Shown: positions 1 through 57,070 of the stretch, in pieces
Layout: each line of letters opens with the position of its first letter
Numbering within the stretch: position 1 is the stretch's first letter
NCBI GenBank assembly: GCA_001189095.1
Contig: LFCK01000004.1
Coordinates: 5,674-69,673 of the forward strand
Reading direction: 5' to 3'
Length of the DNA: 64,000 nucleotides
DNA from: Parcubacteria bacterium C7867-001
GTDB lineage: Bacteria > Patescibacteriota > Minisyncoccia > Phycocordibacterales > Phycocordibacteraceae
Position numbers and translations under genes: made by a program
The notes under the pieces: generated by a model
The model's input: only the letters and a program-made list of their open reading frames with translations
Told to the model about the DNA's origin: nothing
The model's database searches: none

Positions 1-152
1 ATTCGCTGCACTACGCTACTTTGGCGCGTCAGTCTTCGGACTCTTCTTCGCGCTCCAGTTTTATTACGCCTGGGCAATTGCACACATTCTTCTCTCGTTT
101 GTCTCAGCAAAATGGCATTCGTAGACCTGCTACTATATACCTATCCGCAGTC

Positions 153-3821: not shown

Positions 3822-5165
3822 TTATTGGCTCGGAATGAGCAGAAGTTTTACAACGAGTTCGTCTACCAGCTTTTTATCTTTTGGGGAGAGAACGGGATGC
3901 AAACCCAAATCTTGCTGCTCACTAGGATCGGTATCGATGCGGTACAGATGCACCCCGCCGTCCGGCGTTCGAAGTGCGTGCCAAGGCCACGAAACGGCCG
4001 AGGCAGTCCGTGCGAACCGTGCGCCACCCGGTATCAGTACGGACTGTACCGATGTAGCCATAGAATTCTGTAGATACACGGAGAGGAAGTGGGAGCGAGT
4101 CTCTCCGGTCTGCGCCATACTTATGCTTTGAGGAGCGGTTTCCGTACGCATGGCTTCCACAAGGGAAGCACCTTCGAACGCAGGTTCTTCAGGAAGGTTG
4201 AGAATGTCGAGCAGGGTAGCTGGAAGACTTCGCAGCTCCACATTTCCTCCAATACGCTTTGCGGTTTTTTGTGGAAGAATAATCATGAGCGGTACATGTA
4301 TGCTTTCGTTGTAGAGCGAAAATGCATGCAGGCCGACGCTGCCGTGTTCTCCGAATTCAGCTCCTGCTCCTGAGGTGATAATGACTACTGTATTTGAACG
4401 AAGTCCACTTGCGGCGAGGCGGCCGAAGAATTCTTTGAGTGCTGTGTCGACTGATCGCACGTCTTCCTTATATCCGGCGAGCGAGCGCGCAGCCTCTTCG
4501 CGTGTCGGGCCTCTGGCCTGTGAATTTATTGCTCCAATTTCTGACGACGAAACGTAGGTACCTGATTCGCGCGATCCGTAGGGAATGAAAACTTCGAGCG
4601 GATGGATGAAAAGGAAAAAAGGCGTCTGGGTATCTGTGCGCGCGCTGAGCCACGAAGTCGCCTCAGTAAATATCTTGGGTATGTCGCTTGTTCCGGCCGG
4701 AACAGGTTTGCTTACAAATTCATCGAATCCAGCTCGGACTCGGTATGCCTGACTCGGAAGCGCTGTATTAGAGAAGGCCGCCGTATCGTATCCGGAGGCG
4801 CGCAGGACTTTTGCGATTGTTAGCGTGGAGCTTGCAATAGCGTCTTTGTCCGTCCATATGCCGAGATCCCAAGGATAGCGTCCGGTAAACATCGAGACAT
4901 GGGACGCGAAATCCCAAGGAGCTTGTACGTATGCGTGATCGAATACGATACTCTGGTCGGCAAGCGAAGCAAGAAACGGTGTTGTATCAAGCGTCGGGTC
5001 AAAGAGTGATGTGTACTTCGCCCCGAGGTTTTCAATGGAAATGACAATGACGTTGCAGTTCTTACAAGAAAAGGAGTTTGAAACAGCCGCTCGGTTGAGA
5101 AGGGTAGTAAGCGCCACGCCGACGCCGACGAGAATGATGAGGATGAAAACGGCCCGCGGAATCAT
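3822..5165 (-). CDS. Membrane-anchored alkaline-phosphatase-superfamily enzyme (sulfatase / LTA-synthase-like)
   Basis: N-terminal TM, then a sulfatase-like core (…FDHAYVQAPWDFASHVSMFTGRYP…); its stop overlaps the lnt start (ATGA). Confidence 0.5.
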   Translation of the reverse strand: MIPRAVFILIILVGVGVALTTLLNRAAVSNSFSCKNCNVIVISIENLGAKYTSLFDPTLDTTPFLASLADQSIVFDHAYVQAPWDFASHVSMFTGRYPWDLGIWTDKDAIASSTLTIAKVLRASGYDTAAFSNTALPSQAYRVRAGFDEFVSKPVPAGTSDIPKIFTEATSWLSARTDTQTPFFLFIHPLEVFIPYGSRESGTYVSSSEIGAINSQARGPTREEAARSLAGYKEDVRSVDTALKEFFGRLAASGLRSNTVVIITSGAGAEFGEHGSVGLHAFSLYNESIHVPLMIILPQKTAKRIGGNVELRSLPATLLDILNLPEEPAFEGASLVEAMRTETAPQSISMAQTGETRSHFLSVYLQNSMATSVQSVLIPGGARFARTASAVSWPWHALRTPDGGVHLYRIDTDPSEQQDLGLHPVLSPKDKKLVDELVVKLLLIPSQ

Positions 5166-6952: not shown

Positions 6953-7804
6953 ATGACCAGTCTTTCCATTTCAATCATTCGTTCTCAGGGCTTTCTGATG
7001 CTTCTTCGCGATATCGGGCTGCCATTCGCGCTCTTCGCGCTCTTCGCGCTCCTCCCGAATGACTGGATACTCATGACCTTCGTTATTGTTGCGTGGGGTC
7101 ATATCAATCTCGCGATGCTGTATCAATATCGAGCAGGGAAGATTACCTCCCGGTATGCACTGGTCGCCGCGGCATCTATCGCCCTTGGCGTTGGGTATTT
7201 TCTCTGGGTCGGTTACGAATTCCCGATCTATGTGCTTGGTATTGCGGCGTTCGCACTCCATTTCAGCGTAGATGAATTCTATTTGCACGGAGAGACGCTT
7301 ACGTGGAAGAACGGGATCATTGCAGGCATCGTTACGGCCCTCTTTACCTCAATATCGCTCCTTCCCTCATCTCCCGTATATCAAACGGTCATCATGCTTC
7401 TTGTTGGTTTCGGTCTCGCCGTTCTGGCTCTGCGTTCGGTGGTAGCCCGAATACCGCCCTCACGCACCGAGGTGTATCTTTGCTATGTGGGAGCCCTTCT
7501 CATGGTATTTAAGTTCGGTACGCATTTCTATACAGCGTTCGGTGTCTTAAGCCTCCTGCATTTCGTAAATTGGTACATCGCGTACGGGATGAAGGTATCA
7601 GGTACTGCGCGTGCACTTCGTTACTGGAGCGAGGTCGCGCTCTGTACGGTGATGGGGGCAACACTATTCTTTCTCTACTTCATCGATGCCATATCCTTCC
7701 TTAAATATTTGTTCGGTCCGCTCTACTACACCGCTTGGTCCATATTGCACTTCATTCTTTCGAGTCGGTGGGTGAGTGGGCTGAAGAGGCCGCTGTTCGG
7801 ATAG
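6953..7804 (+). CDS. Polytopic membrane protein, paralog 3
   Basis: ATG 2 nt after the paralog 2 stop (the ORF track used TTG at 6944); motifs YQYRAGKI, DEFYLHGETL, LLHFVNW, SSRWVSGLKRPLFG. Confidence 0.6.
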   Translation: MTSLSISIIRSQGFLMLLRDIGLPFALFALFALLPNDWILMTFVIVAWGHINLAMLYQYRAGKITSRYALVAAASIALGVGYFLWVGYEFPIYVLGIAAFALHFSVDEFYLHGETLTWKNGIIAGIVTALFTSISLLPSSPVYQTVIMLLVGFGLAVLALRSVVARIPPSRTEVYLCYVGALLMVFKFGTHFYTAFGVLSLLHFVNWYIAYGMKVSGTARALRYWSEVALCTVMGATLFFLYFIDAISFLKYLFGPLYYTAWSILHFILSSRWVSGLKRPLFG

Positions 7805-25294: not shown

Positions 25295-25645
25295 CGGACC
25301 GATTCAGACGATCGCTCTCAGGATAGGAATGTCCCGAAGGGAGGAAAGTCCGAGCACAGGCATTCGCAAGGATGCAGCAGGGTAGCGGGTAACGCCCGTC
25401 CGCGGAAACGCGCGAGGTGCGAGCAGTGACGTCAAACGCGAAAGCGCGCGACAACCTTCGGGTTGAAGTCCATCGAAAGGTGGAAGTGAAACGGCTAAAT
25501 CCTTACTTCTGTGCAAGGCCGTATCGATAATCTTCGGATATGTCGAGGCGCCGCTTGAGGTGTACGGTAACGTACATCCCAGATAGATGATCGTCCGTGT
25601 AGCAATACGCGACAGAACTCGGCTTATCGAATCGGTATCCACTTC
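25295..25645 (+). ncRNA. rnpB: RNase P RNA (bacterial type A)
   Basis: P4 GGGAGGAAAGTCCGAGCACAG, GGTAACGCCCG, and the 3' element AGATAGATGATCG...ACAGAACTCGGCTTATCG; TATAAT -10 at 25284-25289; terminator at 25652-25673. Confidence 0.9.
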
Positions 25646-43190: not shown

Positions 43191-44435
43191 ATGAAAACCA
43201 GACAGGTTCTTATCGTCATCGCGTTCCTCCTCGTTATTGGTGGTGGATACGGTACGTATACGTATCTAAAGGAGAAACCGCCACATTGGTTGATTGGTCT
43301 CCTCACGCGCACTGCACCGCCGCCGCCACTTCCCGAAGGAGAGACGGCGCCGCTTACGCTACCGGAAGGTTTTGTAGCAACCATTTTTGCACGGGACATC
43401 ACGGGTGCACGTGTCATGCTTCGTGACCCAAAAGGCACGCTACTCGTTTCTGAAACGGGGGTAGGGAAGGTTGTCGCGCTCCCTGATGTAAATAGCGATG
43501 GAGTTGCAGACAAAACAGTTACGGTGCTCGAGGGTCTGAGACAACCGCACGGCCTTTCCATCATTTGTGCTGACACAGGAAACGCGAGCGCCGATCAGGA
43601 TGCCTGCATGCTCTACGTTGCGGAAACAGGTTCACTCAAGTCGTATGCGTATGACGCCGACACCATGAAAGCGTCGAGTCCAACAGAGCTTGCCCAATTT
43701 CCAGCGGGTGACGGCCACTTTACTCGCACACTGCTTCCCGCGAAGGATAACTCGGGACTCTTCATTTCAATTGGATCTTCGTGCAACGTTTGCAACGAGA
43801 AGAATCCGTTACGTGCGACCGTACAGCTCTTTGATTTCGCAACGCAGAAGCTGACGACGTATGCAACGGGGCTACGCAACACGGTCTTTATGGCGTATGA
43901 CCCCGTGACCGGCGCGCTCTGGGGAACGGACAATGGGCGTGATGTCATTGGTGAGGATATTCCACCGGACGAAGTAAATATCATCAAACAAGGCGGCAAT
44001 TACGGGTGGCCCGTTTGTTACGGCGCAAACATAAACGATCGCGACTTTGATAAAAACGTCTACATTCAGAATCCTTGTAACGGAAAAATCGCACCGCATA
44101 TTGAGCTTCAGGCGCACTCAGCGCCGCTCGGACTCGCGTTCATTCCCGAAGAAGGTTGGCCGGCGGATATGCGTAACGACCTTCTCGTCGCGTATCACGG
44201 CTCATGGAATAGGTCCGTACCAACTGGCTACAAAGTTGTGCGCTTCAATCTCGACGGTTCGCGCAAAGCGTCGGGAGGTCCTATCGACTTCGTTACCGGC
44301 TTTCTTGCTGCAGGAGCAGAAGAAGACGCTGCAATAGGAAGGCCGGTCGGACTTCTTGCAGAGCCAGGTGGCGTCGTGTATCTCTCCGATGATCGAGCGA
44401 ACGCCATCTACAAGATTCGCTACGCAGGGAACTAA
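43191..44435 (+). CDS. PQQ-dependent sugar dehydrogenase-like beta-propeller protein
   Basis: Signal anchor and a GGNYGWP motif. Confidence 0.65.
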   Translation: MKTRQVLIVIAFLLVIGGGYGTYTYLKEKPPHWLIGLLTRTAPPPPLPEGETAPLTLPEGFVATIFARDITGARVMLRDPKGTLLVSETGVGKVVALPDVNSDGVADKTVTVLEGLRQPHGLSIICADTGNASADQDACMLYVAETGSLKSYAYDADTMKASSPTELAQFPAGDGHFTRTLLPAKDNSGLFISIGSSCNVCNEKNPLRATVQLFDFATQKLTTYATGLRNTVFMAYDPVTGALWGTDNGRDVIGEDIPPDEVNIIKQGGNYGWPVCYGANINDRDFDKNVYIQNPCNGKIAPHIELQAHSAPLGLAFIPEEGWPADMRNDLLVAYHGSWNRSVPTGYKVVRFNLDGSRKASGGPIDFVTGFLAAGAEEDAAIGRPVGLLAEPGGVVYLSDDRANAIYKIRYAGN

Positions 44436-44904: not shown

Positions 44905-45216
44905 ATGCCCAAGATTGAAAAAGTGGAAGGCGAAACCTTTTCGCTGCGCGTGACGCGTCGCAAAAGCCGCAAACGTTCGAAGCGCACTTCTGAGAGCGCG
45001 CGTATCCGCGTGAAGTGCGGCTGCTGCGACGAGGCTGTCGAGATTTCGCATGACGATCGTCTCATCAGTCCGGCGAGTAATTTCCTCGAGATCAACGGGG
45101 TCATGGGCACCGTCCAGGAGTGGAGGCACGTTTTCGCCCCGCTGCTTGGCTTCCAACCGGTGGTTTCGACCGCGAAGGGCGGCGCCAAGAAGACGACGTG
45201 GGAAAGCCTCATCTAG
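44905..45216 (+). CDS. Hypothetical basic protein with a CGCC motif
   Basis: 103-aa ORF; terminator at 45237-45267. Confidence 0.35.
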   Translation: MPKIEKVEGETFSLRVTRRKSRKRSKRTSESARIRVKCGCCDEAVEISHDDRLISPASNFLEINGVMGTVQEWRHVFAPLLGFQPVVSTAKGGAKKTTWESLI

Positions 45217-45302
45217 GCTCCACCGACAAGAATACAAAGCACGGCCAGAATGGCCGTGCTTTCTTTGTCTATATACGATTTTGTGTTATGTTTTCTTACT
45301 AC

Positions 45303-45374
45303 GGCCCTATCGTCTAACGGTTAGGACAGATCCCTTTCACGGATCAAATCGGGGTTCGATTCCCCGTGGGGTCA
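45303..45374 (+). tRNA. tRNA-Glu (anticodon TTC)
   Basis: Acceptor ggcccta/tggggtc with G-U pairs; anticodon loop ctTTCac. Confidence 0.7.
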
Positions 45375-45377
45375 CAA

Positions 45378-45546
45378 GGAGAGGTGGCTATGAATATAGT
45401 GGGATTATATTCATCCGCGTAGACGGGAGTGTCCGAGGAGGACACGAAGTCACCGAACCGATGAAATACGGAGAGGTGGCTACGAACATGATGGGATCGT
45501 GTTCGTCCCCGAAGAGGGGAGTGTCCGAGGAGGACACGAAGTCACC
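45378..45546 (+). repeat. Two tandem ~77-nt cloverleaf-like repeats (R1 45378-45454, R2 45470-45546), each starting with the first 12 nt of tRNA-Ser (GGAGAGGTGGCT)
   Basis: Closing stem ggtggc/gtcacc plus three hairpins; R1 versus R2 differences are compensatory within the stems. Confidence 0.6.
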
Positions 45547-47214
45547 TCGATTGAGTGAAGCGAAGGAGAGGTGGCTGAGTGGTCGAAGGCACCACACTCG
45601 AAATGTGGCGTACGGGAAACTGTACCGAGAGTTCGAATCTCTCCCTCTCCGCAATACTGGTGAAGAGGTGGCGAAAGCTACCTCTTTTCCTTTATCTACT
45701 TGGGTTTTTAGCAGTTCGTAATCTTTATTCAGCTTCGGTACCCACTCAACCAATAATTGAGCCGCATCTGTGTAGAATCTCCTTATTTCAAGCCTGTTTT
45801 GCTGTAAGTTCGTAAAGATTTGTGAAAAGAGTAATCGCTTCTCATCATTGTTGGCTTTCTCATAGATTTCCCGTGCCTTGTACGCGAGTTCGTGCACAGC
45901 AACTCCTAACTGTAGGTATTCATCGTTCTTATCACCACAACGAACCAGGGCGCTTTCAAGAGCCTCTTCCTCGGTTATCAAATCTCCAATCTTTCTCTCG
46001 AAAAATTCTGCTGGAGCCTCACGATTTATCTTTGCTTCATAGAGCTTATCCTTTTGGGCGCGAACACCTTGCAGCAATCCGTTGAGACGCTTCACATCAC
46101 TTTCGCGTTCAGTAATCTGCTCACTGTGTTGGCTTCTTAAAATATCTTCAATAGCCGAAAGCACACGCTCATCTTTTGGAGCGATGCTATCAAAAATATC
46201 AATAAGCTGTAATTCAACTCTATCCTCTCGAATGCCTGTCTTTTGAGGACAGTTCTTAAAGGCGGTACTGTTATTACAATGCCCGTACCAATTACCTTTC
46301 TTTTGATACCACGTAACCATCCCACCGCATCCCTCACAGAAAATCTTGCTCTTAAATAAAGCGTTGTGCTTTTGATACTTTGGATTCTTCATCTGTCGTC
46401 TCAAGACAAGCTGCACTTTCTCAAAAACATCCCTAGCGACAAGCGGCTCGTGAGTTCCAGGGTACACTTCTCCTAGCCATCGTATTTTGCCGATATAGAA
46501 AGGGTCTTGCAGTAAGTTATAGATTCGGGATTTCAATAGCATCTTGCCGCTCGTATTGCGCAATCCAGCATCGTAAAACTCTTTTTCCAGTCGCTTGAGT
46601 GAATAATCTCCCGTTGCGTACAACTCAAACATTTTCTTTATATGAAAAGCAACAGCCTCATTAGGCGCGTGGATTTTATGTCCTTTTTCTCCCACACACT
46701 TGTAGCCAATAAGAGGCTTGGCAGGTAGTCCGCCTTGTGCGATTTTTTCCTTTTGCCCCTTCTTCACTTCTTCTGAAAGATTTGTAACGTACTTTTTCGC
46801 AAGCACAATTTCAATATCCCACCTAAACTTCTCATCAGATTTAGCATTTTTGTGAATGACAAGATTTTGTTTTACGAAATGGATTTGTCTTTCTTCGTTA
46901 GCCTCAAGCCAGTCATTGATAGCTAGAGCATCTTTAAGGTTTCTGGTAAGTCGGTCAACTTTTTCGCAGAGGATATTAGTGACTCTATTTTTCTCTGTGA
47001 ATTTAATCATCTCATCGAATACCTTGCGTTGCTTGGCTCCGCTTGCTGATTCTGCCATCGAAAATATCTTTACGACGGTCAACTTTCTTTTATCAGCATG
47101 TTCTTTAAGTAATTTTTCCTGTGAATCGAGGGAATATCCAGTTTCTTCCTGTTCTCTTGAGGAGACTCGACAGTAGAGTACAGCTTTTGGTTTTAATTCT
47201 TTGTTAGTAGTCAT
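45388..47214 (-). CDS. Large serine recombinase (resolvase domain + recombinase domain + zinc ribbon + coiled coil); the last ~90 codons run antisense through tRNA-Ser and the repeats
   Basis: N-terminal AVLYCRVSSREQ (catalytic Ser), a CEGCGG...HCNN zinc ribbon and a long coiled coil. Confidence 0.8.
   Translation of the reverse strand: MTTNKELKPKAVLYCRVSSREQEETGYSLDSQEKLLKEHADKRKLTVVKIFSMAESASGAKQRKVFDEMIKFTEKNRVTNILCEKVDRLTRNLKDALAINDWLEANEERQIHFVKQNLVIHKNAKSDEKFRWDIEIVLAKKYVTNLSEEVKKGQKEKIAQGGLPAKPLIGYKCVGEKGHKIHAPNEAVAFHIKKMFELYATGDYSLKRLEKEFYDAGLRNTSGKMLLKSRIYNLLQDPFYIGKIRWLGEVYPGTHEPLVARDVFEKVQLVLRRQMKNPKYQKHNALFKSKIFCEGCGGMVTWYQKKGNWYGHCNNSTAFKNCPQKTGIREDRVELQLIDIFDSIAPKDERVLSAIEDILRSQHSEQITERESDVKRLNGLLQGVRAQKDKLYEAKINREAPAEFFERKIGDLITEEEALESALVRCGDKNDEYLQLGVAVHELAYKAREIYEKANNDEKRLLFSQIFTNLQQNRLEIRRFYTDAAQLLVEWVPKLNKDYELLKTQVDKGKEVAFATSSPVLRRGRDSNSRYSFPYATFRVWCLRPLSHLSFASLNRGDFVSSSDTPLFGDEHDPIMFVATSPYFIGSVTSCPPRTLPSTRMNIIPLYS
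45565..45651 (+). tRNA. tRNA-Ser (anticodon CGA)
   Basis: Long variable arm; anticodon loop ctCGAaa; followed by the hairpin at 45671-45695. Confidence 0.8.
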
Positions 47215-47230
47215 AAATTTATTTGGAATG

Positions 47231-47575
47231 TTATTTCTTGGAGAAGTGTTTTGTGAGAATCACTGTCACAAGAATCGTTATTATTAAAATAAGCGCAAAC
47301 ACGATTACATTTCCATATTCATTTATGCCTGCTTGCGAAGGCGCGTTCTCTGCGGTAGTTGTCGGTTGAATTTTCAAGGCATCAAGCTCACTTCGGATTT
47401 CTTGGACTTGCGTTTTCAGTTCAGTATTTTCTTGCTGGAGATTTGAGCTTGGTTGCTGATTCTGCTGTCTTTGATAGTAAGTCTGTATACACGTTTGAAG
47501 CGCAGCCTCATCAGTGGTCTTACAACCTGTTGCAGTATCTTGATATTGTTTTTGAAACTGTAGAATTTTTGCCAT
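47231..47575 (-). CDS. Tail-anchored coiled-coil membrane protein, element-encoded (ORF extends to 47731)
   Basis: Gln-rich coiled coil and a C-terminal TM (VIVFALILIITILVTVILT). Confidence 0.4.
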   Translation of the reverse strand: MAKILQFQKQYQDTATGCKTTDEAALQTCIQTYYQRQQNQQPSSNLQQENTELKTQVQEIRSELDALKIQPTTTAENAPSQAGINEYGNVIVFALILIITILVTVILTKHFSKK

Positions 47576-47772
47576 AGGTGCTAGCACCTGTAGCAGTCCG
47601 TTACGCAAAAAGGGACAGCCCAGGAGCCTGCTACCCACAAGATTGAATTGCACGAGGCAACCAATTGCGGAGGTCTGGACTGCCCCTTTTCGCCCACAAT
47701 TGGGGCTTAAAAAAGCAGAGACCTCGTGCACTATTCAAAACTTATGGGTAGCATAGTAAGTATAGCAAGATG

Positions 47773-47988
47773 TCAGCTTTTGGCAAGTTCAATATCACTA
47801 CTTTTTATTGCCATTTTTATTGCGCTTGCTAATAGCTGAGTTCTTGACCAGCAAACATCCTCGTCGAGGTACCAAGACATCTTAATTTCATCCAACTCTA
47901 CCTTTGTGAGTTCTCGTCCAAAATTTGCTTCAGCAAAACTTTGGATTTCATCCGTATCAAACTCAACTGTAAGTAATATTTCTTCCAT
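47773..47988 (-). CDS. Small acidic hypothetical protein, element-encoded
   Basis: 71-aa ORF, pI acidic by eye. Confidence 0.4.
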   Translation of the reverse strand: MEEILLTVEFDTDEIQSFAEANFGRELTKVELDEIKMSWYLDEDVCWSRTQLLASAIKMAIKSSDIELAKS

Positions 47989-48031
47989 TTTTTTGGTTAG
48001 TTAAATTTATAAATCTCTATATGATGAAATT

Positions 48032-49768
48032 TTACCCATCATCAGCACTAAAGGGTACGAGGGAGCAGAAGACGCTGTTTTTACCACCCTTCTTTGTGAA
48101 AAGTTGTGAATCTTTAATCATCTCTTCTATGGCTGTCTTGAATGTTGAGTGACCTGTTTTAATCCCAGTCTTTTCGACCAACTTCCATATCTCACTTTTG
48201 ATTAAGGGGGTGCCAGTGTCCTCTAATGCTAGTTGGATAGAGGTTTTCAATTCCTCCTTTTTATTTGTTCTACCTTTGCTCTGTCCTCCATATTTGAAGT
48301 AACCTTTTTCACCGTCACTGTGCAAGCGAACTACAAAAGGTTCCATTTCTTGCCCCTCTCGTAATTTGTTTTGCTGGATGGTTACACTAGCGTCATTGCC
48401 ACGTCTATCAACGGCGAGGTGACAATCCACTTGGGCAAGAATATCTGATGAGCCGCGCATATCCTGTGACGCGTTACTCCTGTCAGCTCCTTTCTTGCGA
48501 TGATGATGGATAACAATGACCGCAATGCCATGATTGGTAACTTCCTTAAAGTGCTTCATTACTTCTCTCATTTCGCTTGCTACATTTTCATCTGAATCGT
48601 GGATACAGATGAGGGAGTCGAAAATCACAAGCTCGATATTTTTGCTTTTCGCAAATTCAATAACTTTTCCTACACTCTCCTTAGTGAGCAAAAAGTCTTT
48701 TTTGGAAGCAATGAAAATAGGCAGCTCGTTATTCTGCAAAAGCAGCTTCGCTCTATCTTTCAGAATCCGTGGATGATTCTCTTCGTCAATAATCAGCACA
48801 GGGCTTTGCCTGGTCTGAAATTCGTCAAATAGCTTCTCACCGCCAGCTATCTTTAGTGCAATATCTAGAGTAATAAAAGTTTTATAAGACCTGGGTGCTC
48901 CAGAAATGATAGTGACAGCTTCGTGTGGAATCAGTCTCTCAACAAGCCATTTAGTATTTTTGTATTCAGTTACAAGTAGTTGTGAAAGCGGTACCGCATC
49001 TATGCCACGGCTAGTTTTAGGTTCGCTTTTTTCTGCTCTCTGTTTCAGCTCTCGATTGGCAATACTGTTGAAGACATTTTTTAATTCTGCATCTGGAAGA
49101 GGTGGTTTGTTGTTTTGATTCCAGCGTTGCATACCAAGCCATACCAGCTCCCAGGTATCCTCTGGAAGATAACCCAGCATTTTTCCTGCCATCTGCGCCG
49201 ATACCTCATTTCTACTTCCTTCCATTACTGGTTTTGCAATGGTTGCTTTCCAGTCAGCATCTTTTTCTTCCTCTCCGAAAGCCCAGTGCGGTAGTTCTGC
49301 AAGTTCCATTTCGCCTGGAGGGATGTTCCAAACGTATTGATTGCCAGATGAAAGTAAAGAGGGTGGCACTACCACGTATCCACCATCAGCTCTAATATCA
49401 ACATTGGGTACAATGCGCACTCGATTCTTCACTTCTCGACCAGGGTGTTTGCAAAATATGTGCCGTCCGCCGCTTGCAGTTTGAGATGCAACAGTAAGAG
49501 GCAGTGGGTAGTCAATTTTTTCTGGAGTATCTATATCAATGACAACAATTCCAGAGATAGCGCCTGTAACGATTCCCACATTCGCATCTGGGTATCTTGT
49601 GAACCACGCCTCAATCTCTTTTTTCGTGGCTCTGGTACGTTGGTAGACTTCCCACTTAATGAGAGCTTTCTTATCTTTGCCGATTGGTATAACAGACCAG
49701 CCTAAATCAGCATATTGAAGCGCGGCTATGAGGTTTTGATTTTCATTTTTCATAAAATTATTTGGCAT
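48032..49768 (-). CDS. Bifunctional PrimPol-domain primase + AAA_25/RecA-like ATPase (replicative primase-helicase of a mobile element)
   Basis: PrimPol motifs GIVVIDIDTP, GGRHIF, DIRADGGYVVVPPS; Walker A GAPRSYKT; Walker B ELVIFDS. Confidence 0.75.
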   Translation of the reverse strand: MPNNFMKNENQNLIAALQYADLGWSVIPIGKDKKALIKWEVYQRTRATKKEIEAWFTRYPDANVGIVTGAISGIVVIDIDTPEKIDYPLPLTVASQTASGGRHIFCKHPGREVKNRVRIVPNVDIRADGGYVVVPPSLLSSGNQYVWNIPPGEMELAELPHWAFGEEEKDADWKATIAKPVMEGSRNEVSAQMAGKMLGYLPEDTWELVWLGMQRWNQNNKPPLPDAELKNVFNSIANRELKQRAEKSEPKTSRGIDAVPLSQLLVTEYKNTKWLVERLIPHEAVTIISGAPRSYKTFITLDIALKIAGGEKLFDEFQTRQSPVLIIDEENHPRILKDRAKLLLQNNELPIFIASKKDFLLTKESVGKVIEFAKSKNIELVIFDSLICIHDSDENVASEMREVMKHFKEVTNHGIAVIVIHHHRKKGADRSNASQDMRGSSDILAQVDCHLAVDRRGNDASVTIQQNKLREGQEMEPFVVRLHSDGEKGYFKYGGQSKGRTNKKEELKTSIQLALEDTGTPLIKSEIWKLVEKTGIKTGHSTFKTAIEEMIKDSQLFTKKGGKNSVFCSLVPFSADDG

Positions 49769-49940
49769 TGTCTTTGCTTGCTTCTTGATGGAGACGCAAA
49801 TTGATTTTGGCGAGCGTAACGTAAAAAGTAGCGAAGTCTTTTAGAAGTTTCTGTATCTCGCTTTCAGAACGTCCTTCAAAAACACCTGTCTCTTCAATAG
49901 GGATTCGCAGCTTCGCAAGTTGTTGCGGTGTGAACTCCAT
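49758..49940 (-). CDS. Small hypothetical protein (60 aa), element-encoded
   Basis: Internal ATG of ORF 49758..50021; abuts the stop of the 49942..50181 ORF. Confidence 0.25.
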   Translation of the reverse strand: MEFTPQQLAKLRIPIEETGVFEGRSESEIQKLLKDFATFYVTLAKINLRLHQEASKDNAK

Positions 49941-49941
49941 A

Positions 49942-50181
49942 TTATTTGAGAGCGTACAGACGATTCTTGAGCTGCTTTTGATTACTAAAGAGGCTCTGTA
50001 TCGAAACAGAGATTTCAGCACCAGCCCAATAATCGCTTACAGCTTTTTCAAATCCTTCTGCGCGGCGAAATAGAAAGTTTATTCGTTTCGCATCTGCACG
50101 CTCCAAGCCGACCAAATCAAATTGGAGAGTAAGCAAAAGGGTTGCGAGTCCCAGGTCACTAATTTTTTCTGTATCTTCCAC
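49942..50181 (-). CDS. Small hypothetical protein (79 aa), element-encoded
   Basis: ORF only. Confidence 0.3.
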   Translation of the reverse strand: MEDTEKISDLGLATLLLTLQFDLVGLERADAKRINFLFRRAEGFEKAVSDYWAGAEISVSIQSLFSNQKQLKNRLYALK

Positions 50182-50321
50182 ATAGAGATTGTCCCAATAA
50201 TCGCCGCCGTTTTTTAGTGTTTGTCAGCAATATTTCTCTTTTGAAATACACTCACAAAAACAGCCGCCATACGGCGACTAATTCGAGTTATCAACAAACG
50301 GAAGTAAATGGTAATAAAAAT

Positions 50322-51023
50322 CTACTTCTTTGGAGGGTTATGGAGCGCAATGCCTACTCTTGGCTCAATGCGAACGTAGCCCTTGATGAAATCTCCCGCT
50401 TGGCGATAAAGACCGTTATGAACAGCATTTTTGATACGCTCAATTTTCTTTTCTTTCTCCTCCAGCTTCGACTGATTATAAAGCGGCTTTTCAAGCTCGT
50501 CATTCAATTCTTCGTAAGTCATTGACCTGCTCAAGCCATCATCGCCGTAGAGGATATTTAGAACAAAATAATGAATCGAAGAATAAGTATCAAATGGAAT
50601 TTTTCTGTCGTTGCAATAAAAATCATTTCCGTGTTTTTCGATTGTGCGGATTACAGTATGGGCAGACGCTAGGGAGGCGATATGTTTTTTTAGCTTCGAT
50701 TCATCAACCTCTATCACGTAAACCTCTTCCTCTTTTCCTGCCTGGTCTCCATCATCAAATTGCGACTCGCTCCCAGTTTCTTCAAAAATCTGATGCTTTT
50801 CTTCCGCCTTCTTTATAAAAAATCCCCATCGTGCGCGGTACTCTTTGACAGCCCCCACTTTTTTCAATCGCTCCAGTGATACCTCAACTTCTTCTTTTGT
50901 AACTCCTCGGACATTGAAATCTTTTACCTTGATAGCAAGAGGGCGAACGCTCTTGGAGTCGTTCGCAACAATTTTGGCTACTATTATTTCGCTATCTTCA
51001 ATACTCATTCCCATAATAATCAT
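50322..51023 (-). CDS. Hypothetical protein, element-encoded, with an acidic central region
   Basis: 233-aa ORF divergent from the xis-like gene. Confidence 0.45.
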   Translation of the reverse strand: MIIMGMSIEDSEIIVAKIVANDSKSVRPLAIKVKDFNVRGVTKEEVEVSLERLKKVGAVKEYRARWGFFIKKAEEKHQIFEETGSESQFDDGDQAGKEEEVYVIEVDESKLKKHIASLASAHTVIRTIEKHGNDFYCNDRKIPFDTYSSIHYFVLNILYGDDGLSRSMTYEELNDELEKPLYNQSKLEEKEKKIERIKNAVHNGLYRQAGDFIKGYVRIEPRVGIALHNPPKK

Positions 51024-51091
51024 AGTCTAACAGAACTTGCCAAAACTTGCCACACACAACCAAAAGAGCTAAACTGTAAGGACATAACATT

Positions 51092-51268
51092 ATGAAACAA
51101 GAAAAGTATTTAACACTGCAAGAAGCAGCAAAAATCTTAGACGTTAGTGAGCGCTCAATGTTCCGCTACATCCATAGTGGAAGGCTTAAAGCCAGCAAGA
51201 TTGGTTCCTGGCGTATCAAAGAAAAAGACCTTGAAGATTTTATTAAAAAAAGTTCCAACCTTTCTTAG
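51092..51268 (+). CDS. Excisionase-family HTH (HTH_17/Xis-like) DNA-binding protein, 58 aa, not in the ORF track
   Basis: LTLQEAAKILDVSERSMFRYIHSGRLKASKIGSWRIKEKDLEDFI; its stop TAG is immediately followed by the PHP-ATPase start. Confidence 0.65.
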   Translation: MKQEKYLTLQEAAKILDVSERSMFRYIHSGRLKASKIGSWRIKEKDLEDFIKKSSNLS

Positions 51269-51280
51269 GTGTCTGATTTT

Positions 51281-54200
51281 ATGAGTAAATCACTTTACAA
51301 CCGAGGTTCAGAGTGGAGAAAATGGGATTTACATATTCATACCCCAGCTTCTTTTCATTGGAACGGTGGAAAGAGATTTTTCGAGATGACTGCGCCAGAA
51401 AAAGAGCAGGCATTTCAGAAAATGCTTGAGACTATAAATAATTCCGATGTTGCTGCTTTCGCAATGACTGATTATTGGACGTTTGATGGATATTTAGAAT
51501 TTAAGGATTATATAAAAAGGAAAAATCTAAAACTTAATAAGACCGTATTTCCTGGAATGGAGTTGAGAGTAGAAGCACCCGTAGACTACCGATTAAATAT
51601 CCAGGTAATTCTTTCAGACGAGCTGACTGCTCAACAACTCAAGGACTTTAAAGCAAAGTTAAGAATAGGTAGCCTTAATAGGAGTCTTTCAGATGATGCC
51701 ATAAAAGAATTCGCCCAAACTCTGGACGACAGCAAAGCAAAAACTCACGGTTTTAAATCACCTTCGACTCTTAACGACACAGAACTACTTGAACTTGGTT
51801 CTAAGACTGTAGTAGTCACAAAAGAATCTCTTTGCAGAGATGCTTTTACTGCAATTCCACCAAAGTGCGGGTACATTCTTTTACCTTATGACACATCAGA
51901 CGGCTTGGTGAAGTTGGATTGGGCTACTCACCCTCACGATGACAACTACTTTATGCAGTCCGCTCATATTTTTGAATCGCGCAATGATGAGTGTATTGAT
52001 TTGTTTTTATGCAAAGAGACACCCAAAAATAAGAGTTTTATCAAGAATTTTATTAAGACGATAGGGGGTAAACCAAAACCAGTTGTCTCTGGTAGTGATG
52101 CCCATAAAATTGAAGACTACGGAAATTATCCTAGTGGGAAAATTACTTGGATAAAAGCTGATGTTACTTTTCAGGGTTTAAGACAAGTTGTTAATGAACC
52201 TGCGGATAGAGCATATGTTGGAACTTCTCCACTTAAGCTTATTGAAGTAGCGAATAATAAATCTAAATACGTAGACTCAATTAAGATTGCACACACTTCA
52301 CCAGGCACCACGCCTGCTTGGTTTTCCAGTAAACTGCCACTAAACAGTGGTTTCGTTGCTATTATTGGTAAAAAAGGAAGCGGTAAAAGTGCACTTGCGG
52401 ACATCGTGAGTCTTTGTGGTGACAGTAAGATAAACCCAAAGGATTATTCATTTCTCACAACCCAGAAGTTTAAAAAGCGTAGCTTGGCAAAAAATTATGA
52501 GGCTAATCTCACGTGGCTTGATGCCCAAGAAATATCTAAAAACTTGGACAGCGAGGTTGAGGTTGCTACCTCTGTTGAAAGAATAAAATACCTACCGCAG
52601 CAATATGTTGAAACTATCTGTAATGAGGAAGGTGTTAGTATTTTGTTTCAGCAAGAGATTGATAAAGTAATTTTTTCTTATGTCCCAGATGAGAGCAGGC
52701 TTGGCACAAATAGCTTGGCAGAGTTGATAAAAACAAAAACAGAATCAGTGGACGGTTCTATTTCTGTGTTACGTACAGAGTTGCATAGAATTAACGAAAA
52801 AATAACTTTACACGAAGACAAAGAAGCTCCTAAGTATGAGGAATCTTTAAATAAGAAACTTGAAGAGAAGCAACGTGAACTCAAGAATCTCCCTCAGCCG
52901 AAAGTTGTTAAGAAGCCTAAGACTACTTTAAACAAAGCAACGGAAGCCAAGATTAAAAGGCTCACCGCGTCCATTACTAAGTTTGATGAACAAATAACAG
53001 TTGCAAAGCAAGAGTTAAAAGATGTTAACGGCAGACTCCATAAACTTGAGAAGATTACTGATAAAGTTACTTCTCTTGGTGGAGATGTTGAAGCATTTAT
53101 TGAAACTTTCCAAGAAGATGCAACTGGAATGGGCATTGACCTTACCAAAGTCCTAAGTCTCAAAATAAATGACGGAGTCCTTAAGACGAAGAAGACGGAG
53201 CTGTCTGCGGAAAAAGAAAAATTGGATGAGAAGCTAGAACAGAACAATCCTAAATCAACGACAAGTTTTTATATCAAGAAGGCAAAGCAGGAAGCAGAGT
53301 TGGCGAAGATTACAGCTACACTTGATGCAGACCAAAAACAATACAAGGAGTATTTGCAAGCACTCAAGGAGTATGGAGAGAAAAAGCAAGCAATTGAAGG
53401 GAAAAAGGGTGATACAAGTTTGGATACTATAATTTCCCTTGAAGAAGAAATTGATTTTGTTAAAAACAAGCTCAAGGGTTTTTTGCAGCAAGGATATAAG
53501 AAACGCGAGGAAACCCTAAAAAAAGTTTTTAAAGAGCTGGGACAAAAAATTAAGTTCTACCAAGAAATCTATACCCCAATCGTTAGTTTTATTGAAAGTG
53601 AAAAAGAAACCCAAGAAAAATCTGGTAATGTTTTAAGTTTCAGTGCGGGGCTTGTCTTTGGGCGACCCAAATTTGTTGATGACTTCTTTTCTTTTGTGAA
53701 TCAAGGCAAGGACGGAAGTTTTCAAACTGTTGCGGGTGGTCAAAAAATACTCAACGCAATTATGGATAAGTATGACCTCACTAAAGAGGACGGGGTATGT
53801 GGATTTACCGAAGACCTTTTGACTCACCTTAGAAATGACAATACTGGAACAACTCCAAAAACAAATCACATCAAGTCTCAACTCAAGAAAGACCAGACTG
53901 ACTTCTACGATTATGTATTCAACCTTGATTACCTAGATGTGAAGTACAAAATCCTTTTCAACGGGAAGGATTTGAACGCCAATGAATTTTCGCCTGGAGA
54001 GAAAGGTGCGCTACTGCTCATTTTCTATTTACTGATTGATAAGGAGAACATACCTCTAGTGATTGACCAGCCAGAAGAAAACCTTGATAACGAATCAGTC
54101 TATACATTACTTGTCCCGTACATTAAAAAAGCAAAGAGTAGACGACAAATTATTGCCGTTACTCATAACCCCAACCTTGCCGTGGTATGTGACGCGGAGC

Positions 54201-54358
54201 AGATTATCTGTGCATCAATGGATAAGAAGAAGTCGGAAGTAAAATATGTTTCTGGAAGTATTGAGGACTCGGATATTAACAAAAAAATTGTAGACATTCT
54301 GGAGGGTACGTTACCTGCCTTTACGGTAAGAGATAGAAGTTATATTAGGAGAAACTAA
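51281..54358 (+). CDS. PHP-domain phosphoesterase fused to an SMC/OLD-like ABC ATPase with a long coiled-coil insertion (alternative GTG start 51269)
   Basis: PHP motifs WDLHIHT, MTDYW, GSDAH; Walker A GKKGSGKS; coiled coil about aa 480-800; ABC signature FSPGEKG; Walker B LVIDQPEENLD; H-loop VTHNPN. Confidence 0.7.
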   Translation: MSKSLYNRGSEWRKWDLHIHTPASFHWNGGKRFFEMTAPEKEQAFQKMLETINNSDVAAFAMTDYWTFDGYLEFKDYIKRKNLKLNKTVFPGMELRVEAPVDYRLNIQVILSDELTAQQLKDFKAKLRIGSLNRSLSDDAIKEFAQTLDDSKAKTHGFKSPSTLNDTELLELGSKTVVVTKESLCRDAFTAIPPKCGYILLPYDTSDGLVKLDWATHPHDDNYFMQSAHIFESRNDECIDLFLCKETPKNKSFIKNFIKTIGGKPKPVVSGSDAHKIEDYGNYPSGKITWIKADVTFQGLRQVVNEPADRAYVGTSPLKLIEVANNKSKYVDSIKIAHTSPGTTPAWFSSKLPLNSGFVAIIGKKGSGKSALADIVSLCGDSKINPKDYSFLTTQKFKKRSLAKNYEANLTWLDAQEISKNLDSEVEVATSVERIKYLPQQYVETICNEEGVSILFQQEIDKVIFSYVPDESRLGTNSLAELIKTKTESVDGSISVLRTELHRINEKITLHEDKEAPKYEESLNKKLEEKQRELKNLPQPKVVKKPKTTLNKATEAKIKRLTASITKFDEQITVAKQELKDVNGRLHKLEKITDKVTSLGGDVEAFIETFQEDATGMGIDLTKVLSLKINDGVLKTKKTELSAEKEKLDEKLEQNNPKSTTSFYIKKAKQEAELAKITATLDADQKQYKEYLQALKEYGEKKQAIEGKKGDTSLDTIISLEEEIDFVKNKLKGFLQQGYKKREETLKKVFKELGQKIKFYQEIYTPIVSFIESEKETQEKSGNVLSFSAGLVFGRPKFVDDFFSFVNQGKDGSFQTVAGGQKILNAIMDKYDLTKEDGVCGFTEDLLTHLRNDNTGTTPKTNHIKSQLKKDQTDFYDYVFNLDYLDVKYKILFNGKDLNANEFSPGEKGALLLIFYLLIDKENIPLVIDQPEENLDNESVYTLLVPYIKKAKSRRQIIAVTHNPNLAVVCDAEQIICASMDKKKSEVKYVSGSIEDSDINKKIVDILEGTLPAFTVRDRSYIRRN

Positions 54359-54501
54359 TTTCTGAATCATAATTCTAAAGGCGGATACTCTCCAAAAGTT
54401 GTATATACTCAAGGCGATATGCCTTGTATAATTTTCAAATAAATTTTACCTATAGATATTTGAACACTTGCAAACATATAACTATGTAGTAATATGTTTG
54501 T

Positions 54502-54816
54502 ATGAGTAGAAACCAAGTAGAACTTGAAGCCAAACTATTTAAAGGCTTTGCTGACCAATCCCGCCTCTTAATACTATCCACTATTTTAGGCCAACCAAAA
54601 ACTGTAAGTGAAATTGTTGATGAAACAAAACTTTCTCAACCAAACACTTCGGCTCATTTAGCGTGTCTTTTGGAATGTGGTCTTATTCGTAACGAAAAGA
54701 AAGGACGAGAGGTTTTTTATGAAGTTTCAGGCAAAGAAGTTGTGGGTATGCTTCAACAGGCACAAAAAGTTTTGAAAAAACACTCCAAGGAGATTTATGA
54801 ATGCACAAACTACTAA
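54502..54816 (+). CDS. ArsR/SmtB-family metalloregulator
   Basis: wHTH and a Cys pair LACLLEC. Confidence 0.7.
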   Translation: MSRNQVELEAKLFKGFADQSRLLILSTILGQPKTVSEIVDETKLSQPNTSAHLACLLECGLIRNEKKGREVFYEVSGKEVVGMLQQAQKVLKKHSKEIYECTNY

Positions 54817-55439
54817 CTATGTGTAAAGAAGATAACGACAATTTAGACCTTTCCCATATAAACCCCGCATATAAGCGGGCACTATGGATAGTGGTCATAC
54901 TCAATCTAGGTTATGGAATAGCCGAAATGATTGGTGGGTTTTTAGCTAACTCTCAAGCTCTTAAAGCTGATGCTTTAGATTTCCTTGGAGACGGTTCAAT
55001 TACATTTATAGGACTGCTTGCTATAGGTTGGTCATTGAGATGGCGTGCTCGTTCTGCTCTTACCCAAGGCATATTCCTAGGAATTATGGGTCTTGGAGTA
55101 ATAACGACTACAGCGTATAAGATATTTGTGCTAAACACACCTGAAGCAGAACTTATGGGCATATTAGGAGTTATTGCTCTTGTTATAAATGTGATTTCGG
55201 CTGTCGTGCTAATTCCTCATCGCCACGGAGACGCTAATATGCGGTCAGTATGGCTTTTCAGCCGTAATGATGCCTTTGGCAATTTAGCTGTGGTTATTGC
55301 TGCAGGTATAGTTTATTGGACAAACACCTCTTGGCCAGACCTTGTAGCCGCACTTATCATCGCAGGATTATTTCTTCATTCGTCTTGGTCGATTATCAAA
55401 GACGCACGAAGAGATTTAAGTAAAATTAACAACAAATAA
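54801..55439 (+). CDS. Cation diffusion facilitator (CDF) transporter, membrane domain only (no C-terminal cytoplasmic domain)
   Basis: 6 TM helices; HRHGD and ExxxD-like motifs; overlaps the arsR stop. Confidence 0.6.
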   Translation: MHKLLTMCKEDNDNLDLSHINPAYKRALWIVVILNLGYGIAEMIGGFLANSQALKADALDFLGDGSITFIGLLAIGWSLRWRARSALTQGIFLGIMGLGVITTTAYKIFVLNTPEAELMGILGVIALVINVISAVVLIPHRHGDANMRSVWLFSRNDAFGNLAVVIAAGIVYWTNTSWPDLVAALIIAGLFLHSSWSIIKDARRDLSKINNK

Positions 55440-55450
55440 TAAATAAAATT

Positions 55451-55645
55451 ATGTCTATAAAAAGTGCCCTCAATTTTGACCGTCATCACATTTTTCTTAC
55501 TAACGCCAGCCATCTTGCTCTTGGGTTTGGATTAGCTTTAGTTTTGCAGCATTATATTTCTGGCAATGCCTTTCTTCCAGTTGTCATAGGTTGGGTTTTG
55601 ATAGGGTTTGGTTTACTTACTCACTTGGTTGCGTGGACAAAATAA
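55451..55645 (+). CDS. Small membrane protein
   Basis: 64 aa, 2 TM helices. Confidence 0.35.
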   Translation: MSIKSALNFDRHHIFLTNASHLALGFGLALVLQHYISGNAFLPVVIGWVLIGFGLLTHLVAWTK

Positions 55646-55766
55646 ATGTTTCTAAATAGGGTTTATGCTTGGTGTATAGAGCGGTTAAAATTAGCATCTA
55701 TAGGTATATAGAATTTTACCCATAAGAAAGAGAGGTCTACGCCCTTTTGTATGCATCTGTTTGTTT

Positions 55767-55901
55767 TTGGTACTAAATGGTACAAAACTACACACCTGAT
55801 AGTAATTTTGCCAGTACCATGTCTGTATTTGATGCTAGTCCTATGGTACTAACTGATAGTGGAAAGATGGTACATATAGAACTGTACATACCAGTACGTA
55901 C
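55767..55901. repeat. Cluster of (A)TGGTAC iterons (at least 5 copies, one inverted) near the right end of the low-GC element
   Basis: Copies at 55767, 55776, 55814 (reverse complement), 55843, 55867, plus degenerate gtaca/gtacgtac. Confidence 0.5.
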
Positions 55902-56200
55902 CCAGACAAGAAAATTTTTCCTAAAAATAGCTCCTGGGATATGGGCTGTCCCCCCTAAAATAAAATCTCACGCCAGGGAAACACCCACCACCCCAAATAC
56001 GAAAAATGGAGCTTCTATGCTCCTTTCCTTGAACCGAGTATAATAAGCCCATTAGGGGGCTGTTTAAGCCACAATAGCGAGCAACTGACGCATCTGTTGC
56101 AGGGAGACGCTAGGATAAGGGAAGATTTCTTCCCATTTAACAGTTCGTACATAGTCCCCCCAAGCCCGCAGATGACAAAGAAGGCGCGCAAGCGCCTCTT

Positions 56201-57070
56201 TTGTTTGGTGTAAGATTCTATATATATCCGTATGGAACTCCTTTCCTACACATGGACGTACTTGGCGCAGGCACCAGCAGTATGGAATTAATTGCAGGCG
56301 ATAAAGAGCTTGAAGCGCTCAATATTCAGCTCAACGATCCAACGCAGCTTGCGGCGTACAAGGGACCGCTGGATACCTACCGGCCGCACCTCCTCCCGAG
56401 GGTATTCGGATCTTTTTTGGTGTTTTGCGGCAACCTTGTGTACGGGCGCGAACCGTCCTATCTAAAGTTTCGAGCGGTTGAGATAATTGCGCGCGTGCCA
56501 TATCACTCGTGGTCATCTGCTGCTTTTACGCTCCTGACTCTGTTCTTTTCGAATGAGAAAAAAGCCTTGCGGCTGTCGAATGTTGCGCGCTACTCGCGTA
56601 TTGCTTCTGACAACGAAACCATGCATGTGGTTGTTATTTCCCAGCTTGCGAGAAAAGAAGTAAAAGCGGGTTATGTTCGGCACACCCTTGTTCCGATGCT
56701 GTTCGCCTTTTTCTACTTCTGGGCTTCCTATTGGATGTACCTTATCCGTCCGCGCTGGTCATATGAACTGAACTATCTGTTCGAATCACATGCGTTTGCG
56801 CAGTACGACAGATTCCTTGAATTGCATGACGAGGAGTTGCGACACAAAGCAGTCGAAAGCGATTTCCTCGCATGGTACGGACGTACGCCGATACATCAGT
56901 ATGACTTCTTCCGCTCGGTACGTAATGATGAGATTGTGCATCGAAATCAGTCTATTCACGACATCGACGAGGAAGCGGATCTGCGCCGCATTCGTCTCCT
57001 GAAACGCATCGCGCTTTTCGTTGTTGGGGTACTGCTGGTGCTCGTTGCCGCCGCTGTTCTGCTTGTTTGA
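56201..57070 (+). CDS. Alternative oxidase (AOX/PTOX)-like diiron carboxylate protein
   Basis: Four helix motifs matching the AOX iron-ligand motifs: AVEIIARVP, NETMHVV (NERMHL), FESHAFAQY (LEEEA..Y), RNDEIVHR (RADEAHHR). Confidence 0.6.
   Translation: MFGVRFYIYPYGTPFLHMDVLGAGTSSMELIAGDKELEALNIQLNDPTQLAAYKGPLDTYRPHLLPRVFGSFLVFCGNLVYGREPSYLKFRAVEIIARVPYHSWSSAAFTLLTLFFSNEKKALRLSNVARYSRIASDNETMHVVVISQLARKEVKAGYVRHTLVPMLFAFFYFWASYWMYLIRPRWSYELNYLFESHAFAQYDRFLELHDEELRHKAVESDFLAWYGRTPIHQYDFFRSVRNDEIVHRNQSIHDIDEEADLRRIRLLKRIALFVVGVLLVLVAAAVLLV

Follow-up and report, generated by a model that had tools for sequence, protein, structure and literature searches.

The subject of this analysis is a 64-kb window of the genome of Parcubacteria bacterium C7867-001, within which all coordinates are numbered, and, inside it, two tandem repeats, R1 and R2, that lie between the genes for tRNA-Glu and tRNA-Ser(CGA). 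R1 and R2 are probably copies of a small, uncatalogued RNA element that is neither a tRNA nor part of the neighboring recombinase gene, since they combine pieces of tRNA-Ser with hairpins, show compensatory pairing, and have one relative in another Parcubacteria lineage. Our preferred reading, which we consider about as likely as not, is that R (the repeat unit) would be a structured RNA derived from tRNA-Ser, co-transcribed within the tRNA-Glu/tRNA-Ser precursor and possibly acting in cis on tRNA-Ser maturation. An earlier note on the locus was partly right, in arguing for a constrained structure and in naming tRNA-like RNAs among its candidates, but it went wrong on a supposed fourth copy, on the period of the array, and on the relation to the recombinase open reading frame (ORF). 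The core of the locus is laid out as follows.

45303..45375, + strand: tRNA-Glu(TTC), first gene of the putative transcription unit (ARAGORN and Rfam, 59.5 bits).
45376..45454, + strand: R1, including a leading AA followed by GGAGAGGTGGCT and ending in GAAGTCACC (77-nt repeat at 45378-45454).
R1 helices, + strand: closing helix P1, 45383-45388/45449-45454; hairpin H1, 45390-45398/45406-45414; hairpin H2, 45415-45417/45424-45426; hairpin H3, 45429-45434/45440-45445.
45455..45469, + strand: spacer 1, 15 nt, unrelated in sequence to spacer 2.
45470..45548, + strand: R2 (77-nt repeat at 45470-45546).
R2 helices, + strand: P1, 45473-45481/45540-45548 (9 bp); H1, 45482-45490/45498-45506; H2, 45507-45509/45516-45518; H3, 45521-45526/45532-45537.
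45549..45564, + strand: spacer 2, ahead of tRNA-Ser (18 nt counted from 45546).
45565..45652, + strand: tRNA-Ser(CGA) (ARAGORN and Rfam), whose nt 1-12 and ~20-28 are the segments common to R1 and R2.

A repeat search of the window returned R1 and R2 as a 77-nt direct repeat, 86% identical, with starts 92 nt apart, just as had been described. The sequence GGAGAGGTGGCT occurs exactly three times in the 64 kb, at R1, at R2, and at the tRNA-Ser start at 45565 (chance expectation 0.24), and the identical 28-nt 3′ part of R is confined to R1 and R2. The previously noticed sharing of the first 12 nt with tRNA-Ser holds at all three sites but is incomplete: R1 and the tRNA gene have 14 nt in common (AAGGAGAGGTGGCT), and a second segment, GAAGNCACC, i.e., GAAG(T/G)CACC, corresponding to tRNA nt ~20-28, is also shared. 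Direct repeats AAGGAGAGGTGGCT, ACGGAGAGGTGGCT, and AAGGAGAGGTGGCT stand at 45376, 45468, and 45563, so that each R unit is flanked by such cores. No further copy of R was found in the window or in ~1.1 Mb of related loci, and dispersed copies of the kind formed by miniature inverted-repeat transposable elements or repetitive extragenic palindromes were not seen, the 64 kb holding only the two adjacent ones.

Each repeat is predicted to fold into the closing helix P1 and three hairpins that meet in a four-way junction (+ strand, −31.3 kcal/mol for R1 and −45.3 kcal/mol for R2; z = −4.1 and −6.8), which bears out the closing stem and three hairpins proposed earlier. H1 has 9 bp in R1 and R2, and the H3 loop is 5 nt long (GAGGA); the 5′ tail AAGGAGA, the H1 loop UGGGAU, and the H3 loop are single-stranded in both folds. 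The inverted arms of R, GAGGTGGCT and AGTCACCTC, lie 56 nt apart and enclose three more palindromes. Folds of the minus strand are weaker (−25.3 kcal/mol for R1, −35.0 kcal/mol for R2); the + strand is also the more stable one for R3, the homologue described below, and the G-U pairs are compatible with the + strand only. Together, the G-U pairs and the computed energies would favor the + strand, i.e., the strand of the tRNAs.

Despite 11 differences between R1 and R2, all 24 pairs are standard in both copies and none of the differences is disruptive. Four pairs are changed on both sides (three in H1 and one in H2), one H1 pair goes from U-A to U-G, and two differences fall in loops. All 11 lie within 45390-45425, the other 13 + 30 nt being identical, and the spacers behind R1 and R2 are unalignable. 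In simulations, 11 random substitutions retained all 24 pairs in ~4-6 of 10,000 trials (p about 5e-4). Only transitions occur among the H1 changes, and the two G-U pairs can form on the + strand alone, a bias that suits an RNA read in the tRNA direction. With R3 added, 98.6% of cells are paired and 9 of the 24 pairs are double-changed (five more than with R1/R2), values that 0 of 500 shuffles reached, in an alignment of three sequences that was fitted to the model; a single U-U mismatch occurs among the R3 pairs. The earlier claim of selection on structure is supported by these data. The hairpins are conserved as structures, and in this genome the junctions, H3, and the closing helix are conserved as sequence.

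R3 was reached through homologues of the 103-amino acid (aa) protein encoded upstream of the tRNAs. Homologues that are 63% identical (Logan runs DRR438488-91) pointed to loci L142, L143, and L144 of another Parcubacteria lineage. Each locus carries a 121-nt homologue of R (model score 24.7 bits, E = 4e-4), placed 31 nt ahead of a tRNA-Ser with the same 5′ end. R3 starts with GGAGAGGTGGCTATGAA, 17 nt identical to R1, and shares with R1 the series GGAGAGGTGGCTATGAA...TTCATCC...GGGAG; its end, AAAGCCUCC, closes P1. H1 of R3 has 10-12 bp and differs from that of R1/R2 in both loop and stem letters, and the middle is enlarged, with two hairpins, the motif GGGAG, and a short H3. In L142, the tRNA-Ser has GAAAGCACC where R3 has AAAGCCUCC; in the window, tRNA and R both have GAAG at that position. 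The likeness of the R3 3′ segment to its own tRNA may point to common descent or to gene conversion involving the neighboring tRNA. Three additional stable hairpins precede R3 in L142 (4547-4620), the first of which (GUGGGGUCCGAUUUAUCGAAUCCCAC) resembles a tRNA T-arm with a loop insertion.

A covariance model built from R1 and R2 aligned tRNA-Ser, from the window and from other genomes, as an R from which the hairpins are deleted. The correspondence can be written in two lines.

tRNA-Ser: 5′ segment AAGGAGAGGUGGCU; middle GAGUGGUC (8 nt); 3′ segment GAAGGCACC.
R: 5′ segment AAGGAGAGGUGGCU; middle H1-H2-H3 (56 nt); 3′ segment GAAGUCACC.

Hence R shares with tRNA-Ser both nt −2..12 (12 nt plus 2 leader nt) and nt ~20-28. 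By this alignment P1 is a predicted pairing of two tRNA-derived segments, with 56 nt of three hairpins in place of the 8-nt D-loop, and R looks like the first 28 nt of tRNA-Ser with its D-loop swapped for hairpins. A partial duplication of the tRNA-Ser gene would account for its origin.

We searched for catalogued counterparts and relatives of R by several routes. In Rfam, at the gathering threshold and at E ≤ 10, no family covered 45376-45548, with rtT, ribozymes, riboswitches, and Y-RNA-like families included, and no family overlapped R3 at E ≤ 5; literature searches for a described counterpart returned nothing specific. A pattern on the constant 3′ half of R gave 0 matches in one genome per species and 0 in Joint Genome Institute (JGI) metagenomes. 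A pattern on the two tRNA-like ends gave 10 metagenome matches, all due to chance, mostly in apparent coding regions and without the three-hairpin fold, and 0 viral ones; GGAGAGGTGGCTAYGAA had one chance match in viral contigs, with no tRNA nearby. R was not found in five further contigs with homologues of the 103-aa protein (L147-L151). In related Parcubacteria, the genes for tRNA-Val(GAC), tRNA-Glu(TTC), and tRNA-Ser(CGA) lie close together, with Glu and Ser divergent or in the order Ser-then-Glu and plain spacers between them. Four public assemblies of C7867-001 are 100% identical to the window here, and all that reach the region carry both R copies; given this identity, there is no population variation to compare. 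When synteny was followed through the upstream dehydrogenase gene, the downstream gene order was not conserved. The best identity for that gene (window 43191-44435) in a protein search was 74%, though an identical gene is present in public assemblies L138-L141; the word-based search overlooked the identical entry, and "no close match" there does not mean that the genome is absent. Two candidate features inside R were tried and rejected. One was a mini-ORF, which in R1 has a Shine-Dalgarno sequence and AUG with 10 codons and in R3 has 37 codons, R2 having ACG at that place; neither its length nor its sequence is conserved. The other was a promoter within R1 (GTCACA-18-TATAGT), which is not kept in R2.

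The layout around the repeats bears on how R could be expressed. Three further features delimit the putative unit.

44905..45216, + strand: 103-aa hypothetical protein ORF, identical to ABA06_04410 of Parcubacteria bacterium C7867-001, without a Pfam match; a host gene, given for context.
45236..45262, + strand: terminator-like hairpin behind the 103-aa gene, a 12-bp stem followed by a T-rich tail.
45662..45687, + strand: terminator-like hairpin AGAGGTGGC-GAAA-GCTACCTCT with a T-run, island-borne, its pairing kept beside other host tRNA-Ser genes in L125 and L126.

Terminator-like hairpins are found only before tRNA-Glu and after tRNA-Ser, with none between. Since the hairpin at 45236-45262 closes the 103-aa gene, the tRNA unit would begin downstream of it. 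We infer from this arrangement that tRNA-Glu, R1, R2, and tRNA-Ser are co-transcribed as a single + strand precursor, from which ordinary tRNA end-processing enzymes, acting at tRNA 3′ and 5′ ends, would free R.

The 5′ strand of P1 is identical to the tRNA-Ser 5′ end, so for the 3′ strand of P1 the next unit and the tRNA are equally good partners. In a fold of the whole precursor, the 3′ strand of R1 pairs with the 5′ strand of R2 and the 3′ strand of R2 with the tRNA-Ser 5′ end (probability ~0.99), and the first GGAGAGG pairs with the 3′ acceptor strand of tRNA-Ser (probability ~0.99); the L142 leader folds in the same shifted register. It is on account of this equal complementarity of the P1 3′ strand to its own partner, to the next unit, and to the tRNA 5′ end that a cis-acting leader is preferred. 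In one state, the P1 3′ strand would be paired inside R, leaving tRNA-Ser free to fold and RNase P free to cut; in the other, the strand would be handed to the tRNA-Ser 5′ end and maturation would be blocked. It is thus conceivable, if speculative, that R switches tRNA-Ser folding and cleavage by RNase P in cis. The fullest version of this idea seems to us rather improbable: R would be the first known case of a tRNA-derived cis-regulatory leader, with a decoy of the tRNA 5′ end in a stable junction that competes by strand exchange with the real end for a single complementary strand and in this way controls, in some Parcubacteria, both processing by RNase P and how much tRNA-Ser(CGA) is available. 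The bacterial class A RNase P RNA of the window (25296-25642) scores only 121 bits (gathering score 100), which suggests that the RNase P RNA of C7867-001 is divergent.

Beyond tRNA-Ser the window carries an integrated island, whose features are listed here.

45649..45653: putative left attachment-site (attL) core CCGCA; the islands in the window, L125, and L126 start right after it; outside R.
45654..56170: integrated low-GC island, ~10.5 kb, beginning with the recombinase and a primase-polymerase (prim-pol)/AAA_25 helicase gene and also carrying a 1029-aa ORF and other cargo; placed by GC content and by a right end conserved with L126; outside R.
45388..47214, − strand: large serine recombinase ORF at its mechanical extent, 608 aa (Pfam Resolvase, Recombinase, Zn_ribbon_recom).
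56166-56170: putative core CCGCA of the right junction, conserved with L126 up to ...GCCCGCA at 56170.
~56182-56207: host terminator-like hairpin beyond the right junction.

The GC content is ~0.40 in ~45.7-56 kb and ~0.54 outside. At locus L125, a 94%-identical recombinase (P0121) adjoins the tRNA-Ser(CGA) of another host, which has no R element, and at L126 a 72%-identical one adjoins a tRNA-Ser(TGA). In all three cases the island begins directly after ...CTCCGCA and includes the hairpin AGAGGTGGC-GAAA-GC(T/C)A(C/T)CTCT, with pairing preserved. Because this hairpin (45664-45685 in the window) is shared by islands at different hosts, it is island DNA, kept whatever the 5′ sequence of the host tRNA; it is not the fourth, degenerate copy of R for which the earlier note had taken it, and the period of 92-105 nt derived from that copy does not describe a single array. 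The host at L125 lacks R, so R is not part of the island system. No displaced tRNA-Ser 3′ fragment was found at the right end of the island, and no other integrase was seen among the ORFs near R.

The position of the repeats antisense within the recombinase ORF, also pointed out before, is real in that the 608-aa frame spans R2 and most of R1. Homologues of the recombinase, however, are 520-555 aa long, and the conserved protein ends near residue 520-530 (~45627-45657). Their C-termini read antisense through the T-arm of the tRNA (a "DSN" motif; tails of the form RDSNS/DSNP/DSNQ recur in P0121-P0141), and beyond the T-arm the tails of the window recombinase and of P0121, its closest homologue, are unrelated. 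The overlap of the ORF with tRNA-Ser, R2, and R1 is, on this comparison, best described as non-conserved read-through into host DNA. Since the recombinase frame runs through the junction without a stop codon, the end of the protein is specified by sequence that spans attL and lies antisense to the host tRNA, and this C-terminus should differ between the integrated and excised forms.

Loci L142 (4769-4841) and L144 (2957-3044), which come from strains of one sample series (Logan runs DRR438489 and DRR438491), have an identical leader and an identical tRNA-Ser 5′ part up to the anticodon loop and then diverge, with anticodon CGA in one and TGA in the other and with different variable and T arms; the L144 gene has an A-C mismatch in its acceptor stem and looks like a chimeric tRNA with a foreign 3′ part from an integrating element. 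At L067 (~7473-7690) and L148 (~4054-4245), a ~190-nt segment downstream of tRNA-Ser lies between direct-repeat copies of the tRNA 3′ end, and a stretch conserved between the two reads TTCGAGCGACGGCGAGAA..TTAT.C.TGACCGAATC; the segment could be either a very small remnant of an integration or a mobile mini-element. Two partial tRNA copies, taken up below, lie at L142 and L020. The tRNA-Glu copy of L142 has its insert after nt 12, the same layout as R has relative to tRNA-Ser, and the pseudo-tRNA-Ser of L020 is hairpin-rich, starts with the first 18 nt of the tRNA, contains a T-arm-like piece (GGGTTCGA), and has no ARAGORN call.

Several observations weigh against a functional, cis-acting R. 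Its H1 and H3 loops are unconserved in R3 (ACCUUCGU and UUU). The covariation statistics are weak because they come from one alignment fitted to the model, with only three sequences from two lineages. A register-shifted fold is expected of any tandem repeat of stem-closed units, and nearest-neighbor energies ignore tRNA tertiary structure. No R-like element was detected, by motif or covariance model, at 120 tRNA-Ser(CGA) loci of many phyla (~22 of them from Patescibacteria) chosen as sharing the same 5′ half; its absence from these loci and from the two metagenome pattern scans means that R is not broadly required. Finally, partial tRNA copies occur elsewhere. On the − strand of L142 (4413-4474), 62 nt upstream of tRNA-Glu, there is a decayed-looking partial copy of that tRNA (nt 1-12, a 15-nt insert, nt 13-29, and a collapsed anticodon stem), and in L020 (3320-3431), from an Elusimicrobiota single-cell genome, a pseudo-tRNA-Ser begins 112 nt upstream of tRNA-Ser(CGA). 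Such duplicates may be mere debris at these loci. R itself could then be debris as well, a pair of decaying partial duplicates of tRNA-Ser (pseudo-tRNA 5′ fragments plus an insertion) produced by slippage or recombination, with hairpins that persist by chance or through palindrome correction at the DNA level. The possession of tRNA-Ser nt 1-12 and ~20-28 fits this account, as do the narrow distribution of R and the status of tRNA-Ser as an integration hot spot, which is evident from the islands in the window, L125, and L126, the 3′ parts of the L142 and L144 genes, and the repeat-flanked segments of L067 and L148. But decay would have to have spared every helix of R1 and R2 and left one U-U mismatch in R3 while the flanking spacers became unalignable; lineages that have only 63% identity in the neighboring protein still have H1 and the junction motifs in common; and on the strand presumed to be transcribed, every non-Watson-Crick pair is a G-U. 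Junk, moreover, is seldom retained by genomes as small and gene-dense as this one. We regard debris as unlikely, yet as an explanation to be taken seriously.

Other explanations fare less well. The layout of core, body, core, body, core plus tRNA would suit a remnant or miniature site-specific integrative element, of a cis-mobilizable kind, in which 92-95-nt units flanked by a 12-14-nt core (AAGGAGAGGTGGCT, the tRNA-Ser 5′ end) accreted in tandem with an integrase supplied in trans, and the presence of R in two distant hosts could mean horizontal spread. Tandem accretion of decayed elements at tRNA and tmRNA attachment sites is well documented, serine-recombinase islands included (PMC5704250, PMC3146451), but the examples in these papers duplicate the 3′ end of the target gene. 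The sole nearby recombinase likewise acts at CCGCA at the tRNA 3′ end, as the junctions in the window, L125, and L126 show, and not at the 5′ end, so the core is left with no cognate integrase among the nearby ORFs; with no other copy in the window or in the related loci, and with the same two copies in all public assemblies of the strain that reach the region, this origin appears distinctly unlikely. A trans-acting small RNA cut from the tRNA precursor, acting as a sponge that would bind other RNAs or an RNA-binding protein through purine-rich GGA/GAGG in its 5′ tail and loops, has the single-stranded AAGGAGA, UGGGAU, and GAGGA of the R1/R2 folds in its favor, and regulatory RNAs derived from spacers of tRNA operons are known from E. 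coli (3′ETS-leuZ). Set against this, those loops are replaced in R3, the 5′ motif is merely the tRNA-Ser 5′ end, and no partner protein or target was identified; we think such a role very unlikely.

The earlier note had also named a hairpin-rich origin and recombination-site structures; in that reading R would be a DNA-level site of the adjacent island, either a replication origin or an attachment or recombination site for its serine recombinase. R does adjoin an island with a recombinase and prim-pol, and one arm of the island hairpin, AGAGGTGGC, is a match to the 5′ ends of both R and the tRNA. The R-less tRNA-Ser beside the closely related island in L125 largely refutes the proposal. The recombinase junctions are at CCGCA, and R lies on the host side of them. 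Attachment sites of large serine recombinases are imperfect inverted repeats of ~40-50 bp around a central dinucleotide, and the arms of R, 56 nt apart, do not resemble this; moreover, covarying palindromes imply the formation of hairpins and not a protein-binding sequence. This explanation is extremely unlikely. The proposal of a tRNA-like RNA, for its part, was sound as regards derivation from tRNA-Ser but not as regards identity. R resembles tRNA (RF00005) in its four-helix junction, its size (77 nt), and its first 12 nt, and the 7-nt H1 loop of R1 and R2, N-U-GGG-A-U with U at position 2 and a purine at position 6, would even give a D-arm-less tRNA with anticodon GGG. Unlike a tRNA, R has no 7-bp acceptor stem, since nt 1-7 have no 3′ partner to form one (neither R1 nor R2 is followed by CCTCTCC, and the closing helix uses nt 4/6-12); it also has no 7-nt T-loop, its H1 is 9 bp long, and three hairpins replace the D-loop. 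ARAGORN called 7 tRNAs in the window and zero on R1/R2, and the Rfam tRNA model found no match on R at E ≤ 10. With the anticodon-like H1 loop not conserved in R3, a genuine aberrant tRNA is refuted for practical purposes.

The structured, tRNA-derived RNA that we prefer has partial parallels among known systems. The repeats of the E. coli tyrT operon (rtT RNA, RF00391) are tandem units that each contain a tRNA fragment, are transcribed with the tRNA, and are freed by tRNA processing; their function is unclear. R is similar in that its tandem units, each with fragments of tRNA-Ser, stand between tRNA-Glu and tRNA-Ser with no terminator between. The rtT units are 178 nt long, are found downstream, and include the final 19 nt of tRNA-Tyr, whereas those of R are 92-95 nt long, lie upstream, and place tRNA-Ser nt 1-12 and ~20-28 around three hairpins. 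3′ETS-leuZ and ITS-metZWV are functional by-products of pre-tRNA processing in enterobacteria, short, mostly unstructured, Hfq-dependent sponges; R, by comparison, originates from the tRNA itself, is a compact junction of several helices, and occurs in a Parcubacteria genome. Like the tRNA/tmRNA repeats of integrative elements (PMC5704250, PMC3146451), R has direct repeats of a tRNA end that bracket short tandem units at a hot spot with a serine-recombinase island, but those elements repeat the 3′ end (PMC5704250, PMC3146451), and R repeats the 5′ end together with a second tRNA segment that pairs with the first. R differs further in that the local recombinase junction is at the tRNA 3′ end and in that its helices show compensatory change. 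R would belong with tRNA-operon repeat and spacer RNAs and with tRNA-derived elements; it matches no catalogued family and has a narrow known distribution.

Even if R is debris, the locus documents a heavy remodeling of tRNA-Ser genes by integrating elements, with seemingly chimeric tRNAs and with a recombinase gene that would acquire a different 3′ end upon integration. If R is a functional RNA, it would illustrate a route to new structured RNAs, by partial duplication of a tRNA gene and expansion of one loop, and it would enlarge the poorly known set of non-coding RNAs of candidate-phyla-radiation bacteria by one uncatalogued motif. We know of no described leader that controls tRNA maturation; if the strand exchange takes place as proposed, R would be a leader governing the maturation of a tRNA rather than of an mRNA.

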